Shown: positions 342-4,525 of the stretch, in pieces
Layout of the letters: every line of letters starts with the position of its first letter
Numbering within the stretch: the first letter of the stretch is position 1
Source of the DNA: a virus
Reading direction: 5' to 3' (one strand)
Length of the DNA: 6,050 nucleotides
Virus record (IMG/VR): IMGVR_UViG_3300029133_000082
Location: 1 to 6,050 of that record
Notes under the pieces: generated by a model
What the model saw: the letters and a program-made list of their open reading frames with translations, nothing else
Told to the model about the DNA's origin: nothing
The model's database searches: none
Program-made: the position numbers and the translations under genes

Positions 342-785
342 ATGAGAAAATTTGCTTATGTTAATCCTGATTTTGAACAGGATAGTGTGGTTCCTGAATT
401 GGTTGAAGGGAATCCCTGTTATGAGGCTAGTGCATATGATTCGGTTATGTTGGAAGAATTGTCTGACGGTTCTTATATGTATATGGATATGACTTCTATT
501 CTCCTTAATCAGGAGAAATACCGTCGTCTTCTCGGTGACATGAATGTTCAGGACATACTTGCTCAAATGCATCCTACTCAGTCTACTCCTATGGACAATA
601 TGACTGATGAGGAACGTTTTAATTGTGTCATTTCTCGTCATTGTCAGACTATGTCAGAACGTCAGGCTGTTCTTCAGCAGTTGGCTAACGAGAAGTCTGA
701 ACTTACTAAGTACGCTGAAATTATGTTGGCAGAGCAACAATCAGAGCCCGCTTCTGCGTCCGCCCCTGATGTCGCTGTTCAATGA
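342..785 (+). CDS. Hypothetical acidic 147-aa protein, possibly the internal scaffolding protein (VP3-like), encoded between VP1 and VP2.
   Basis: ATG at 342 lies 12 nt after the VP1 stop. Third-position T preference is consistent with the confirmed genes. The product is acidic and Met/Glu/Gln-rich (MRKFAYVNPDFEQDSVVPELVEGNPCYEAS...), which fits a scaffold-type protein, but no diagnostic motif was recognised. Its stop overlaps the VP2 start (ATGA at 782..785). Confidence 0.6.
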   Translation: MRKFAYVNPDFEQDSVVPELVEGNPCYEASAYDSVMLEELSDGSYMYMDMTSILLNQEKYRRLLGDMNVQDILAQMHPTQSTPMDNMTDEERFNCVISRHCQTMSERQAVLQQLANEKSELTKYAEIMLAEQQSEPASASAPDVAVQ

Positions 786-1963
786 GGTTTTATGATGTTG
801 GAGAAAGCCCCTTAATGGGGCACTCCGAAAAAAATATTGCTCCGCTTATTGTTGGAGGTCTTATTGCAGCTGGTGCTTCTCTTGCTGGCAATGCCATTGG
901 CGCTTCTTCTCAGTCTTCTGCTAATGATGCTAATGTTGAGATTAACCGTCAGAATAATCAGTTTAATGCTGACCAAGCCGCTATGCAGCGTCAGTGGTCA
1001 ACTGATATGTGGAATCGTAATAATCGTTATAATTCACCTAATGAGATGATATCTCGCGGTCTTAACCCGTTTATTGGTTCTAATGTCGGTGCTGGAGTTT
1101 CTAAGGCTCCTGCTTCTGGCGGTGCTGTTGCTTCTGCTGCTCCTTCCCCTAGTGTTCAGGCATTTCGTCCTGATTTCTCTGATGTTGGTTCTGCTCTGGC
1201 TTCCATGGCTCAGGCTCGCGCCTCTATGCTTAATGCTGAACAGAATGCTGCTCTTACTCCGTATCTTATTAATAAGACGCTTGGTGATACGAATTATCGC
1301 AATATTGGTGTTGGTCAGTCCGGTTACTGGAATGCTTCTACTGGCAAGGAATCTGCTCTTTTAGACCAGTCTAAGGAATATCAGGAACTCAAAAATATGG
1401 AGTTTGCTGGTCGCCTTACTAATGCACAAGAGGCACAGATTTTGCTTGATTCTAAGGCTCAGCAGACACTTAATAAGTATCTCGATGAACAGCAACAAGC
1501 TGATTTGTTTATTAAAGGTCAAACTTTGGCTAATTTGTTTGCGCAAGGTGCGCTTACTGAGGCTCAATACAAGCATGAGATGGCTCAGGCTATTAAGACC
1601 GCTGTTGAGACGAATGGTCTTCGTATTCAAAATAAGATTGCTGAGGAAACTTCTGATTCTCTTATATATGCGAATATTCATGCTAATCGTGCTCTTGGCC
1701 TATCTTCTTTATGGGATTTTAAGAATATGAACGCTGTTAAGAACATGGAATTTTCTGAGAAGAAAGCTGTTCGTGACTATTATAAGTGGAGTGCTAAAGA
1801 GAAACAGAAGGATGTTAATTCTTATGGCTTACGTAACGCTATTGAGTATGGTGCCCGTATTTTCCAAGGTGCCGGTAATATAGTTGGAGCTATGCGCCCT
1901 AGTGCTCAGATTTATCGTAATGATTATGGGCCACGTAATACTACTATTTATAATGGTCGGTAA
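782..1963 (+). CDS. VP2: Minor capsid / DNA pilot protein VP2 (H-like), 393 aa. An alternative in-frame start is at 815 (MGHSEK...).
   Basis: The N-terminal Gly/Ala-rich hydrophobic stretch (IAPLIVGGLIAAGASLAGNAIGASS) is followed by the conserved microvirus VP2 segment NRQNNQFNADQAAMQRQWSTDMWNRNNRYNSPNEMISRGLNPF (Q-x-x-N...A..MQ...W....Y.....M...GLNP pattern). The Ala/Gln-rich coiled-coil-like remainder is typical of pilot proteins. The ATGA overlap with the preceding ORF suggests translational coupling. Stop TAA is at 1961..1963. Confidence 0.8.
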   Translation: MRFYDVGESPLMGHSEKNIAPLIVGGLIAAGASLAGNAIGASSQSSANDANVEINRQNNQFNADQAAMQRQWSTDMWNRNNRYNSPNEMISRGLNPFIGSNVGAGVSKAPASGGAVASAAPSPSVQAFRPDFSDVGSALASMAQARASMLNAEQNAALTPYLINKTLGDTNYRNIGVGQSGYWNASTGKESALLDQSKEYQELKNMEFAGRLTNAQEAQILLDSKAQQTLNKYLDEQQQADLFIKGQTLANLFAQGALTEAQYKHEMAQAIKTAVETNGLRIQNKIAEETSDSLIYANIHANRALGLSSLWDFKNMNAVKNMEFSEKKAVRDYYKWSAKEKQKDVNSYGLRNAIEYGARIFQGAGNIVGAMRPSAQIYRNDYGPRNTTIYNGR

Positions 1964-1990
1964 TAATTAAAATAGTGCGTTTAGTTTTGG

Positions 1991-2041
1991 AATAGGGCAG
2001 AATACTTCTTAAGAGGTGTTTGCCCTATTATTCTTTTTTTC
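1991..2041 (+). terminator. Rho-independent-terminator-like hairpin directly after VP2. It has a 9-bp perfect stem (aatagggca / tgccctatt) around a 21-nt loop, followed by an 11-nt T-rich tract ending in a run of 7 T (2034..2040).
   Basis: The stem at 1991..1999 pairs exactly with 2021..2029. The T-run begins 4 nt after the stem. It sits 28 nt after the VP2 stop, at the end of the apparent genome-wide transcription unit. The loop is longer than in a canonical terminator, so it could alternatively be a structural element of the ssDNA. Confidence 0.45.
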
Positions 2042-2101
2042 CGAAAGTATCGTTTACCGTTGTGTGTTAATTAAGCGAAGCCCCTAGTTGCGTACGAAGT
2101 A

Positions 2102-2124
2102 AATTCGAGTTATCCTCTCGAATT
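2102..2124. other. Intergenic hairpin: an 8-bp stem (aattcgag / ctcgaatt) around a 7-nt loop. It is a candidate ssDNA structural/ori-associated element.
   Basis: 2102..2109 is the exact reverse complement of 2117..2124 and contains an EcoRI palindrome core. It lies in the only sizeable non-coding region of the genome. Confidence 0.4.
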
Positions 2125-2189
2125 CTTCATTTCTTGTCTATAAACGCGCAACTCACACTCTACGGTAGAACCTAAAAAAACAGTTTTCT

Positions 2190-2220
2190 TTTGTAATTAT
2201 GAAAATAGTTTGTATATTTG
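2190..2220 (+). promoter_or_regulatory. Putative Bacteroidetes-type sigma-A promoter: -33 TTTG (2190..2193), a 19-nt spacer, then -7 TATATTTG (2213..2220, matching TAnnTTTG).
   Basis: The motif match and spacing (19-21 nt expected) are read directly from the sequence. It lies in an AT-rich stretch about 50 nt upstream of the first gene (2271) after the intergenic region. There are no Shine-Dalgarno sequences before the genes, which is consistent with a Bacteroidetes host. Confidence 0.3.
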
Positions 2221-2270
2221 CCCCATGTAGAAGTTACAACTATTATTAACACTTTAAAATTATTACAATT

Positions 2271-2450
2271 ATGCAGAAATTTATTATCTCAGTTAAAGAA
2301 AAATCTACTGGTCGCGATGTTATTCCGCCTTATATCGTTAATTCTCTCGATGGTCTTGGAGACTATTCTGAACGAGTTTCTCCGTTGGGTCTTATTGTTA
2401 TTGTGGATTCAATTAAAGAAGAGGATAATTTTGTTGAACTTAAAGCTTAA
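2271..2450 (+). CDS. Hypothetical acidic 59-aa protein (MQKFIISVKEKSTGRDVIPPYIVNSLDGLGDYSERVSPLGLIVIVDSIKEEDNFVELKA), the first gene downstream of the putative promoter.
   Basis: ATG at 2271, stop TAA at 2448..2450. Third codon positions are T-rich like the bona fide genes. The overlapping track ORF 2218..2538 has a TTG start and a Leu-rich composition in this region, typical of an off-frame artefact. The ORF is not in the track because it is under 60 aa. Confidence 0.5.
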   Translation: MQKFIISVKEKSTGRDVIPPYIVNSLDGLGDYSERVSPLGLIVIVDSIKEEDNFVELKA

Positions 2451-2454
2451 ACTG

Positions 2455-2538
2455 ATGAAAAGTAGTAATATTTGGAAAATTGTGATTGGAGCTGTTTCCG
2501 CTGCTTTAGGTTATATTCTTAATGCTATTGGACTATGA
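2455..2538 (+). CDS. Candidate 27-aa micro-ORF encoding a single transmembrane helix (MKSSNIWKIVIGAVSAALGYILNAIGL). Its stop overlaps the peptidase start (ATGA).
   Basis: In-frame ATG at 2455 within the track ORF 2218..2538. It has a short polar N-terminus followed by a ~20-residue hydrophobic Gly/Ala/Ile/Leu stretch, T-rich third positions, and exactly fills the gap between ORF59 and the peptidase. Its small size keeps it speculative. Confidence 0.3.
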   Translation: MKSSNIWKIVIGAVSAALGYILNAIGL

Positions 2539-2843
2539 ATTATACTCTTATGCATTTTTTTGAATACCTGTTGTATTCTAATGTTCATTTTTCGGTAACT
2601 AGTGCTAGGCGTACTCCTGAACAGAATAAAGCTTGCGGTGGTGTTCCGAATTCTCAGCATCTTGTAGGTGAGGCTGTTGATATTAAGCCTTATGGTTCTA
2701 CTTCATTTAGTAAGTTGCTCGGAATGGTTCATTTTTTCTCTGATAATGTTTCGCCATTTGACCAGCTTATTATATATCCGAATTTCATTCATGTTTCATT
2801 CTGCTCTCGTAATCGTCGGCAGGTAATAGATAAACGTAAATAA
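2535..2843 (+). CDS. Peptidase M15-family (VanY / Peptidase_M15_3-like, zinc D-Ala-D-Ala carboxypeptidase fold) mini-enzyme of 102 aa. It is a probable peptidoglycan hydrolase for lysis.
   Basis: The diagnostic M15 signature is read directly: SARRTPEQNKACGG...SQHLVGEAVDI (S-x-x-R-x-P-x-x-N-x-x-x-GG ... S-x-H-x-x-G-x-A-x-D), with the downstream second His in FIHVS, giving the expected His / Asp / His zinc ligands. The N-terminal part of the usual domain is absent (only ~20 aa precede the SARR motif). Confidence 0.78.
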   Translation: MNYTLMHFFEYLLYSNVHFSVTSARRTPEQNKACGGVPNSQHLVGEAVDIKPYGSTSFSKLLGMVHFFSDNVSPFDQLIIYPNFIHVSFCSRNRRQVIDKRK

Positions 2844-2845
2844 TT

Positions 2846-4525
2846 ATGAATTTTTCTCCCGATTTACTTAAAACTGTTGACTATTGTCAGCATCGTTCAT
2901 TTATTACAAATAAGTATAATGGTGCACGCATTGCTGTAGATTGCGGTCAATGTGATTATTGTATCCATAAGAAAGCCCAGAAAGCGTCCATGCGCGTGAA
3001 GACCGCTGGAAGTGCTTTCAAGTATTCTTATTTTGTTACACTTACTTATGATAATGAACATGTTCCTCTTATGGCTTGTAAGGTTTTGCATAGTGATTAT
3101 GAGGACGTTGTAGGTATTTCGGGAGATATACATTTTGGCCATGAATATCATAGATATATCCCTGTTTCCGAGTATCAATGTGATGATAACTCCATGTTGC
3201 GTCATATATTCTTCGAGCAGGTACAAGGCACAGTGCCGTTTGACCGTGAGATTAAGGAATATGTTCCTGTTAAGGATAATTGGTTTCTTAGCATGGATGC
3301 TATTCGTAGTTTTATCTATAAGACGCAATCGGTTGACAAAACGGATTATCCCGCTTCTGAACAATACGGTCGTGATAACCTTATTCCCTTTTTAAACTAT
3401 GTTGATGTTCAGAATTATATTAAAAGATTACGTAAATATTTATATAAACAATTAGGTTCTTATGAAACGTTACATTTCTACGCTGTCGGCGAGTACGGCC
3501 CTGTTCATTTCCGCCCGCATTATCATATCTTATTATTCACAAACTCGGAAGAAGTCTCAAAGGTTTTACGATGCTGTCACGATAAGAGTTGGAAATTCGG
3601 TCGTTCAGATTTCCAGATTGCCCGAGGTGGAGCTTCTTCATACGTTGCGAGTTACGTTAATAGCCTTAGTTCTGCTCCCTTATTATATCGCTCATGCCGC
3701 GCGTTTAGACCCTACTCGAGAGCGTCTCTCGGATTCTTTGAGAAAGGTTGCGATTTCGTGGAAGGTGAAGACCCTTACGCGCAGATTGAGCAAAAGCTCG
3801 ATTCTGTCGTTAATGGAAGAATCTATAACTTCAACGGTATCAGTGTTCGGTCAACTCCACCCATGTCGTATATCCGTACCTTATTGCCCCGATTCTCGTC
3901 TGCTCGCCATGACGATAGTATTGCGATTGCTCGAATTCTTCGAGCTGTGCACTCAACGCCAAAAAGAATTGCAAAATATGGATTTATTGCCTATGAACAG
4001 GATTCAGTCTTGAGTCTTGTTCGTACTTATTATCAATATCTTAAGGTTAACCCTATTCTTACTGACGATGATAAAATTATATTACATTCTTCTCGGTGCC
4101 TTACTAGGTTCTGTAACAGTTCTAGTGATGTCGATATTGAGTCTTATATTAATAAGTTATATCGGCTGTTCTTATATGTCTCTAAATTCTTCCGTAATTG
4201 GCATTTGCCTGACTTCGGTTCTGACCTTACTTCTTACACCAATCGTATTTTGTTTATCCTTAGGACGGGAATAGAGTATGAAAAGAAAGCGGATTATGAA
4301 AGTTTACGAGATGCATATAAACTTCGTGCCCAATACCCTGACATCTCGGATTGTATGTTTGCGTTGCCTCAGAGCGGGCAAGAGACTGATGTCTTGTCGA
4401 GCGTTTCAAGTGAAACGGTTCAATTACTTGAGCAACTCCGGTACCGTAGTGCAACATTCTGTCGTGATATGATTAAGCATAAGAAATTGAATGATGCTAA
4501 TAATATATTCAACCGTATGGTCTAA
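2846..4525 (+). CDS. VP4: Replication initiation protein VP4 (rolling-circle Rep, phiX gpA-like), 559 aa.
   Basis: An N-terminal Cys cluster CGQCDYC (2942..2962) is followed by motif I FVTLTYDNEHVP (approx. 3032..3052). The KRLRK segment and FYAVGEYGPVHFRPHYHILLF (motif II HxH, 3518..3538) come next. Motif III is the two-Tyr segment SSYVASYVNS (3641..3658, Y-x-x-x-Y catalytic pair as in phiX gpA). The ATG is 2 nt after the peptidase stop, and the gene stops with TAA at 4523..4525. Confidence 0.9.
   Translation: MNFSPDLLKTVDYCQHRSFITNKYNGARIAVDCGQCDYCIHKKAQKASMRVKTAGSAFKYSYFVTLTYDNEHVPLMACKVLHSDYEDVVGISGDIHFGHEYHRYIPVSEYQCDDNSMLRHIFFEQVQGTVPFDREIKEYVPVKDNWFLSMDAIRSFIYKTQSVDKTDYPASEQYGRDNLIPFLNYVDVQNYIKRLRKYLYKQLGSYETLHFYAVGEYGPVHFRPHYHILLFTNSEEVSKVLRCCHDKSWKFGRSDFQIARGGASSYVASYVNSLSSAPLLYRSCRAFRPYSRASLGFFEKGCDFVEGEDPYAQIEQKLDSVVNGRIYNFNGISVRSTPPMSYIRTLLPRFSSARHDDSIAIARILRAVHSTPKRIAKYGFIAYEQDSVLSLVRTYYQYLKVNPILTDDDKIILHSSRCLTRFCNSSSDVDIESYINKLYRLFLYVSKFFRNWHLPDFGSDLTSYTNRILFILRTGIEYEKKADYESLRDAYKLRAQYPDISDCMFALPQSGQETDVLSSVSSETVQLLEQLRYRSATFCRDMIKHKKLNDANNIFNRMV
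3929..3945. other. Perfect small hairpin inside VP4 (gctcgaa-ttc-ttcgagc: 7-bp stem, 3-nt loop). It shares the 12-mer ctcgaattcttc with the intergenic hairpin at 2117..2128.
   Basis: 3929..3935 is the exact reverse complement of 3939..3945. The 12-nt identity to the intergenic hairpin is read directly from the sequence. One such 12-mer coincidence is roughly expected by chance in 6 kb, so its significance is uncertain. Confidence 0.3.

Follow-up and report, generated by a model that had tools for sequence, protein, structure and literature searches.

How microviruses outside the phiX174 group lyse their hosts is uncharacterised (PMC7062461, PMC9239249). The closest described elements are the Peptidase_M15_3 genes found by Roux et al. 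(2012) in 11 gut Microviridae, for which a role as endolysins was proposed (PMC3394797), and the peptidases listed by Kirchberger et al. (2022) among lysis-associated accessory genes (PMC9239249). The stretch of viral DNA analysed here (IMG/VR record IMGVR_UViG_3300029133_000082; 6,050 nucleotides, referred to in full as the window) carries a gene of the same Pfam family, in the same kind of virus and with the same proposed role, in a shortened form of 102 amino acids (aa) that is truncated by ~35 N-terminal residues. Directly upstream, and overlapping it, lies an open reading frame (ORF) of only 27 codons, the micro-ORF, for a putative membrane peptide. A first-pass annotation of the window had drawn both frames and their shared ATGA precisely where we find them (Table 1), had read them as a holin-like peptide paired with an endolysin, and had pointed out, correctly, that M15_3 genes occur in metagenomic Microviridae (PMC3394797). 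Close relatives of the 102-aa protein are annotated ‘peptidase’ in GenBank (e.g. OP549867, Dulem viruses and bajarodmic viruses), while neither survey of the family mentions a small membrane ORF (PMC3394797, PMC9239249), Kirchberger et al. having omitted overprinted genes. As far as the searched literature shows, the peptidase is already known, but its mini form, its unannotated micro-ORF partner and the persistence of that partner without the peptidase are undescribed. The analyses below establish the micro-ORF as a genuine, strongly constrained gene, and suggest that it is one half of a putative two-component lysis cassette with an exceptionally small, autonomous membrane component.

We focused on 80 IMG/VR loci picked by similarity of the peptidase alone (65-93% identity), together with GenBank relatives. 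The micro-ORF was found in ~78 of 79 of the peptidase-selected relatives, nearly always together with the ATGA overlap, and is more conserved than the peptidase. Across 78 relatives the ratio of nonsynonymous to synonymous substitution (dN/dS) was ~0.09 (pooled Nei-Gojobori dS 0.58, dN 0.052), which, like all dN/dS values given here, is a pooled pairwise estimate on related sequences that ignores their kinship. Column entropy at the three codon positions was 0.22, 0.09 and 0.68, with variation falling mostly at third positions; Ser15 is encoded by TCN as well as AGT codons; Met1 is conserved while the residues flanking it vary; and the remaining two frames across the micro-ORF are closed by 1-4 stops. 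The core of the peptide, IGAVSAALGY(I/V)LN, is unchanged in Dulem viruses 226, 238, 241 and 243 and in Microvirus mar56, whose peptidases are just 50-58% identical to that of the window. In one relative (L200) a stop lies two codons upstream of the micro-ORF ATG, and loci of a second lineage (type B, below) have upstream stops at variable positions, leaving a peptide that stands alone. The single-helix peptide described in the first-pass annotation is a conserved one.

The micro-ORF is unannotated in every GenBank relative inspected. Gene callers overlook it, and in three GenBank species the peptidase coding sequence is mis-started across it: in Dulem viruses 238, 226 and 243, a 124-aa coding sequence annotated as ‘peptidase’ or ‘hypothetical protein’ (L084 3985-4359, L085 3935-4309 and L087 3998-4372; GenBank PP511332, PP511396 and PP511322) starts 63 nucleotides early, at an in-frame ATG further upstream, and translates the micro-ORF sequence in the wrong frame (MENHHWCCLCC...). 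These genes likely begin at the internal MNV..., which overlaps the stop of the micro-ORF.

To determine the extent to which the two genes travel together, we scanned IMG/VR with a motif for the window’s version of the peptide (type A), which returned at least 101 microvirus contigs. At least 92 of the type-A contigs listed have the mini-peptidase directly downstream, and the ATGA overlap is kept in 88 of these 92, with GTGA in its place at two loci, an arrangement that fits translational coupling. A second lineage (type B), which includes bajarodmic viruses 410 and 1134 and Dulem viruses 236 and 257, encodes a peptidase 47-50% identical to that of the window, preceded by a micro-ORF of 29 aa (MKSETKSKIWSAIIAAAVSLLTSIAQIFS) that usually ends 3 nucleotides before the peptidase ATG. 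This type-B micro-ORF has a dN/dS of 0.08 (35 loci) and is intact in 36 of 37 loci; in a separate motif scan, each of 61 type-B contigs had the peptidase downstream (61/61). Across both lineages, every one of the ~115 loci selected by peptidase, and of the 153 peptidase-bearing loci selected by motif, had a micro-ORF directly upstream of the mini-peptidase. The single disrupted type-B micro-ORF seen (L107/L151/L183, IMGVR_UViG_3300045988_021117) carries an in-frame stop and a short duplication, and may belong to a defective genome or reflect an assembly error.

The same junction bears on a second proposal of the first-pass annotation, in which a programmed -1 frameshift at the ATGA would fuse the two products into a membrane-anchored enzyme resembling the signal-anchor-release (SAR) endolysins. 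The frames are indeed related by -1, and the helix, weakly hydrophobic and rich in Gly, Ala and Ser, is similar to that found beside the muralytic domain of SAR endolysins such as P1 Lyz and phage 21 R. However, in 69 of 78 relatives a stop interrupts the peptidase frame only 4 codons before its ATG, and a slippery X_XXY_YYZ heptamer is absent in 72 of 78; in the other 6, a slip would lead into that stop. Synonymous change in the junction codons is unrestrained; in type B a stop and 3 to ~290 nucleotides lie between the two ORFs; a conceptual fusion gives no better Pfam match; and the peptide persists in genomes that have no peptidase to anchor. Unlike in SAR endolysins, the helix here is a separate polypeptide with no covalent link to the enzyme. 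We therefore find the frameshift hardly credible, and this part of the earlier annotation is set aside.

The most informative relatives are those in which the peptidase is missing. At least nine of the type-A contigs listed (L277, L309, L313, L322, L329, L332, L344, L353 and L358) carry p59 (the gene upstream of the micro-ORF), the micro-ORF itself (...GYILSAIGV*), a conserved spacer of ~52 nucleotides and then Rep, the replication initiator gene. The AT-rich spacer (TTGATTTTATTATTTATATTTATATTTATTGCC.TTTCAGGCTCTTGGTTAT) replaces the peptidase between micro-ORF and Rep, and the peptide ends in ..LSAIGV rather than ..LNAIGL. A six-frame hmmsearch of these nine genomes with the M15 profile found nothing (best E = 0.15, as compared with 4.8e-40 in the window), and no other consistent extra ORF was seen in them; a substitute lysis enzyme in their larger gap between VP2 and p59 was considered, and there too no consistent ORF was present. 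Nevertheless, the micro-ORF in the nine genomes has a dN/dS of 0.12 (dS 0.69). By Rep identity the peptidase-less genomes are scattered among those with a peptidase: the nearest relative that has the peptidase shares 85-94% Rep identity, and is at least as close as the nearest that lacks it. Flanks can be aligned across the boundary between presence and absence, as expected of a clean insertion/deletion polymorphism. These comparisons indicate that the peptidase gene is an accessory which the genome can do without, swapped or lost between closely related viruses, and its gain and loss fit the recombination reported in microviruses by Kirchberger et al. (PMC9239249). The micro-peptide, by contrast, appears to belong to the genome backbone: since it is retained under the same selection without the peptidase, it presumably has a function of its own, with the peptidase as accessory partner. 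Among the loci examined the dependence runs one way, with no mini-peptidase lacking the peptide, yet peptide without peptidase; it is the accessory enzyme that appears to depend on the peptide.

This asymmetry also bears on the idea that the micro-ORF is not a protein gene in its own right, being instead a leader, an upstream ORF or an RNA or DNA element that regulates translation of the peptidase, or that the real gene is a 73-aa ORF overprinted on p59. The ATGA coupling would suit a leader. Almost every type-A locus keeps the longer frame open over ~218 nucleotides upstream, and the density of +1 stops is 0.0024 in p59 as against 0.02-0.05 in other genes. Selection, however, acts at the amino-acid level of the micro-ORF while synonymous change is free, Rfam returned no match, and the peptide is retained where no peptidase exists to be regulated. 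As for the 73-aa ORF (ATG at 2317), proposed by analogy with phiX174 E, it was rejected: dN/dS in that frame is 0.93, and the frame is interrupted in L200 and variably in type B. Its openness is not special, because equally long conserved +1 stretches exist in the Rep gene of these T3-rich genomes (T at third codon positions), where 31% of the 46-codon windows of Rep have no +1 stop in 98% or more of the loci; the controls, codon shuffles and an empirical comparison, likewise indicated that conserved open +1 frames are common here. Neither a regulatory element nor an overprinted gene therefore seems at all probable.

The peptidase was characterised in the same way. Its product matches Pfam Peptidase_M15_3 (PF08291; E = 6.1e-10, 39.6 bits with a cut-off of 23.2) and PHROG 894 ‘endolysin’ (E = 2.9e-14), so that the M15 assignment, originally made from the motifs SARRTPEQNKACGG, SQHLVGEAVDI and FIHVS, is upheld by hidden Markov model. 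The Pfam match spans profile positions 43-107 of 108, and is thus short of a complete domain. When 1.84 billion cluster representatives were searched exhaustively, relatives of ~100 aa aligned with the query from residue 1, whereas in ordinary M15_3 proteins of 130-150 aa residues ~50-56 aligned with query residue ~20; the ordinary members have ~35 extra N-terminal residues (FTLxEFxxSxTAxxxGIxNxP...) that are missing from the mini form, in agreement with the earlier remark that the N-terminal third of the domain is lacking. Residues R26, N31, H42-x6-D49, D76-Q77 and H86 do not vary among 55 close homologues and are matched in alignments to the full-length members; they include the conserved Arg/Asn substrate motif, and from these aligned motifs H42, D49 and H86 are the predicted zinc ligands. 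The HxS that follows the second His, though odd at first sight, is normal for the subfamily. The predicted model has the alpha/beta fold of the LAS superfamily, to which the endolysins of T5, RB49, A500 (Ply500) and B4 belong; a search of the PDB by sequence gave no match. There is no signal peptide and no transmembrane segment, and since a hydrophobic N-terminus is absent from the mini form and ordinary family members alike, the enzyme would be cytoplasmic unless something lets it out. Judged by its sequence, the 102-aa ORF is a truncated M15_3/LAS zinc peptidase, putatively muralytic, which keeps the conserved catalytic residues and lacks an export signal. We also considered whether the micro-ORF might be the missing N-terminal third, split off from the enzyme, and rejected this, as a conceptual fusion scored 39.0 bits as compared with 39.6 and did not extend the Pfam match. 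Three deeper mini-peptidase lineages (P0137, P0143 and P0148) have no close relatives in IMG/VR, and a metagenome scan for such lineages returned type A/B microviruses and ordinary M15_3 proteins of other phages, and nothing else.

The two types of peptide have a common design: a short basic N-terminus (net +2), a Trp, and a single predicted helix of ~20 residues, weakly hydrophobic and rich in small residues, that reaches the C-terminus. The 19-residue Kyte-Doolittle mean is ~2.0 in type A and 1.9 in type B, with Hessa sums of +1.6 and +1.8 kcal/mol, and G/A/S/T make up 42% of the type-A helix (42-48% over both types). In both, small and polar residues lie on a single helical face, which in type A holds G12, S15, A16, G19, N23 and G26, and an Asn (type A) or Gln (type B) stands near the end; shuffle tests of this stripe gave p = 0.054 and 0.010 for types A and B as listed. 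What the types share is design rather than sequence, and at such a length homology cannot be established. The helix at the N-terminus of VP2 (782-900, IAPLIVGGLIAAGASLAGNAIGASS; ..NAIG../..GNAIG..) bears some likeness to the peptide, a lead that was dropped because the two do not covary, VP2 N-termini differing widely where the peptide is identical. The resemblance is probably compositional.

We favour, with a probability of roughly 45%, the view that these genes form a compact module of membrane peptide and muralytic enzyme, in which a membrane-active lysis peptide is joined by an optional endolysin. The peptide would insert N-in into the inner membrane and self-associate via its small/polar face (G12, S15/A16, G19, N23, G26). 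Accumulating there, it would damage or depolarise the membrane, as holins, pinholins and small membrane toxins do, and this damage would give the 11.8-kDa cytoplasmic peptidase access to the murein cross-links that it cuts. The ATGA overlap would tie synthesis of the peptidase to that of the peptide and set the ratio of the products. On such a model the peptide is the backbone effector, presumably enough for release alone or with host autolysins, because peptidase-less relatives keep it, and the horizontally acquired peptidase would be an optional enhancer dependent on it. The peptidase alone cannot explain lysis, because it has no way across the membrane and is missing from some close relatives. 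The holin-like peptide and endolysin pair of the first-pass annotation holds as regards the coupling of the genes, while a ‘holin serving an endolysin’ is too narrow a description of a peptide that at least nine relatives keep without a peptidase.

The likeness to known holins is partial. Tailed-phage holin-endolysin cassettes, including that of pinholin S21 68, likewise have a small membrane protein overlapping the gene for a cytoplasmic muralytic enzyme, and holins and pinholins have a small-residue helix with a polar stripe suited to self-association, as does the micro-peptide, which is a small putative membrane protein with at least one predicted transmembrane helix, encoded beside an endolysin gene. 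However, a number of points weigh against the model. To our knowledge no holin is as small as 27 aa; holins are usually ~60-150 aa in size, whereas the peptides here are 27-29 aa, with one helix and without a conserved dual start. Nor do they end in the hydrophilic, charged domain that is typical of holins, as the helix extends to the last residue. Searches of Pfam and PHROG gave no family match for the 27-mer, holin families included. Lysis by a canonical holin requires an endolysin, and for this reason the peptidase-less genomes, in which the peptide persists without any endolysin, misfit a pure holin role. Some type-B loci are loosely spaced, with ~50 nucleotides between micro-ORF and peptidase in L195 and ~290, containing a ~90-aa ORF, in L198 (1210-1500). 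The selection estimates rest on related sequences, as noted above, and no prophage relatives were found among 185,579 species genomes with the peptidase or VP1 as query. Finally, the Bacteroides phage phiHBP1, the only cultured microvirus of the Bacteroidota (PMC13064476, PV598014), encodes a full-length M15 peptidase of 134 aa after Rep, preceded by a 54-aa ORF, without a type A or B peptide; the pairing is therefore not universal among microviral peptidases, and is specific to the mini-peptidase lineages. phiHBP1 also has a 38-aa moderately hydrophobic ORF between peptidase and VP1, and offers a possible experimental comparison system.

Retention of the peptide under equal selection where no muralytic enzyme exists raises a different possibility, namely that it acts as a single-gene-lysis ‘protein antibiotic’ in the style of the transmembrane domain of phiX174 E or the 37-aa Lys of phage M, its helix binding and inhibiting a conserved membrane enzyme for the synthesis or export of peptidoglycan precursors (MraY, MurJ or a similar protein), with the peptidase as an auxiliary, for example for lysis independent of host growth. 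In phiX174 E and phage M Lys, single transmembrane peptides of 35-37 residues suffice for inhibition of precursor enzymes. The micro-peptide resembles them in being a very small single-pass peptide of a tiny genome that occurs without a muralytic enzyme, and its near-invariant helix, alongside a peptidase that diverges to 50% identity, fits a specific contact with a conserved host target. Unlike them, it is not overprinted, is usually coupled to a peptidase, and has no similarity in Pfam or PHROG to E (Microvir_lysis) or any other described single-gene lysis protein. Moreover, the divergent types A and B share a design that generic self-association explains at least as well, and an inhibitor would leave the constant company of the mini-peptidase with the peptide unexplained. 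We consider such an inhibitor improbable as the whole explanation. Within the model of a membrane-active peptide with an optional endolysin, the autonomous role of the peptide could, by analogy, be either membrane damage that unleashes host autolysins or a specific inhibition of wall synthesis like that by E and Lys, and computation cannot tell the two apart. The type I toxins TisB and Hok, of ~20-50 aa with a single helix and a presumed membrane action, provide a further analogy, without homology and in a different genetic context.

The peptide might also be a backbone membrane protein with no part in lysis, serving membrane association in replication or assembly, or superinfection exclusion, with the peptidase merely lodged at a permissive junction between micro-ORF and Rep. 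Its occurrence without the peptidase, the clean polymorphism between alignable flanks, the loosely spaced type-B loci and the position of the phiHBP1 peptidase elsewhere in its genome, without a peptide, are all compatible with this, as is the size of the p59 family, which at 3062 clusters is ~2x that of the peptidase. On the other hand, the mini-peptidase always sits directly downstream of a micro-ORF, in all the loci of two lineages counted above, and in the type-A contigs listed nearly always with the ATGA overlap; a signal-less enzyme needs a route across the membrane; and these genomes showed neither a further small membrane protein nor another muralytic gene. We regard a role outside lysis as unlikely, if somewhat less so than the inhibitor.

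The window holds a complete microvirus genome, a circle of 5951 nucleotides read with a 99-nucleotide terminal redundancy, and all of its genes are on the + strand (Table 1). Its nearest GenBank relatives are faecal microviruses of dog, human and lemurs.

Table 1 Features of the 6,050-nucleotide window in order of position, beginning with the gene that runs through its end
Feature	Position	Strand	Remarks
VP1 major capsid protein	4544 through end to ~329	+	
147-aa ORF	342-785	+	scaffold-like
VP2 pilot protein	782-1963	+	
Non-coding stretch	1964-2270		
Candidate Bacteroidota-type promoter	2190-2220	+	TTTG-N19-TAtaTTTG
p59	2271-2450	+	59-aa ORF of unknown function
Micro-ORF	2455-2538	+	27 aa (MKSSNIWKIVIGAVSAALGYILNAIGL)
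ATGA overlap	2535-2538	+	micro-ORF stop TGA / peptidase start ATG
Mini Peptidase_M15_3	2535-2843	+	102 aa; putative LAS-type zinc peptidoglycan peptidase
Rep/VP4 replication initiator	2846-4525	+	Pfam REP_ORF2-G2P, 1.4e-16

p59, the micro-ORF and the peptidase form one tightly packed string of genes, and Rep starts 2 nucleotides past the peptidase stop. Most relatives have a p59 of 64 aa whose 3' end extends over the start of the micro-ORF, the copy in the window being 5 codons shorter. A dN/dS of 0.245, at an unusually low dS of 0.31, marks it as coding. Pfam and PHROG searches gave no match for p59, and its predicted structure, a three-stranded sheet (predicted local distance difference test score 77.6), has its only likenesses among uncharacterised proteins of microviruses. 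BLASTP found no match between p59 and the small ORFs that precede the peptidase in phiHBP1 and in lineage B, and homology to them was rejected.

Around 50 nucleotides upstream of p59 lies a promoter-like motif, TTTG-N19-TATATTTG, whose position is conserved in 46 of 73 relatives. It resembles the Bacteroides promoter consensus (TTTG-N19-TAnnTTTG) and is a candidate promoter; if it acts as one, it may drive p59, the micro-ORF, the peptidase and Rep. Together with a lack of Shine-Dalgarno sequences, the motif suggests a host among the Bacteroidota. In the same non-coding stretch, the DNA from 2065 on (2065-2270) is conserved even in the distant Dulem virus 226 and contains a hairpin at 2102-2124, while just past the VP2 stop (~1993-2040) there is a terminator-like inverted repeat, AATAGGGCA-N21-TGCCCTATT, followed by a T-run. 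Within Rep, a 183-aa ORF (MKRYISTLSAST...) in the +1 frame at 3462-4013 is open in all ~80 relatives. Synonymous diversity of Rep is lower inside this ORF (0.343 vs 0.418, Mann-Whitney p = 0.003) and lowest at ~3506-3680, and overprinting of a second gene could account for this, as could a cis element, for instance an origin within the rep gene.

Microviruses outside the phiX174 group rank among the most abundant phages of the mammalian gut, and a conserved peptide of 27-29 aa in every genome of the lineages examined is a concrete candidate for their lysis function, and one that is cheap to test because it is readily synthesised or expressed. In a stronger and more tentative form of the proposal, which we hold possible though short of an even chance, a large clade of microviruses from mammalian guts would have the 27-aa peptide as its backbone lysis protein, the smallest effector of autonomous lysis or of holin-like action known from any phage, with the mini-M15 peptidase as a recombining mobile add-on, useless without the peptide. 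Were this true, the cassette would stand as a natural halfway form between lysis by a single gene and lysis by holin and endolysin. An active peptide would lower the minimum size of phage lysis or holin-like proteins, and its pairing with the peptidase would mark a modular step from one-component to two-component lysis.

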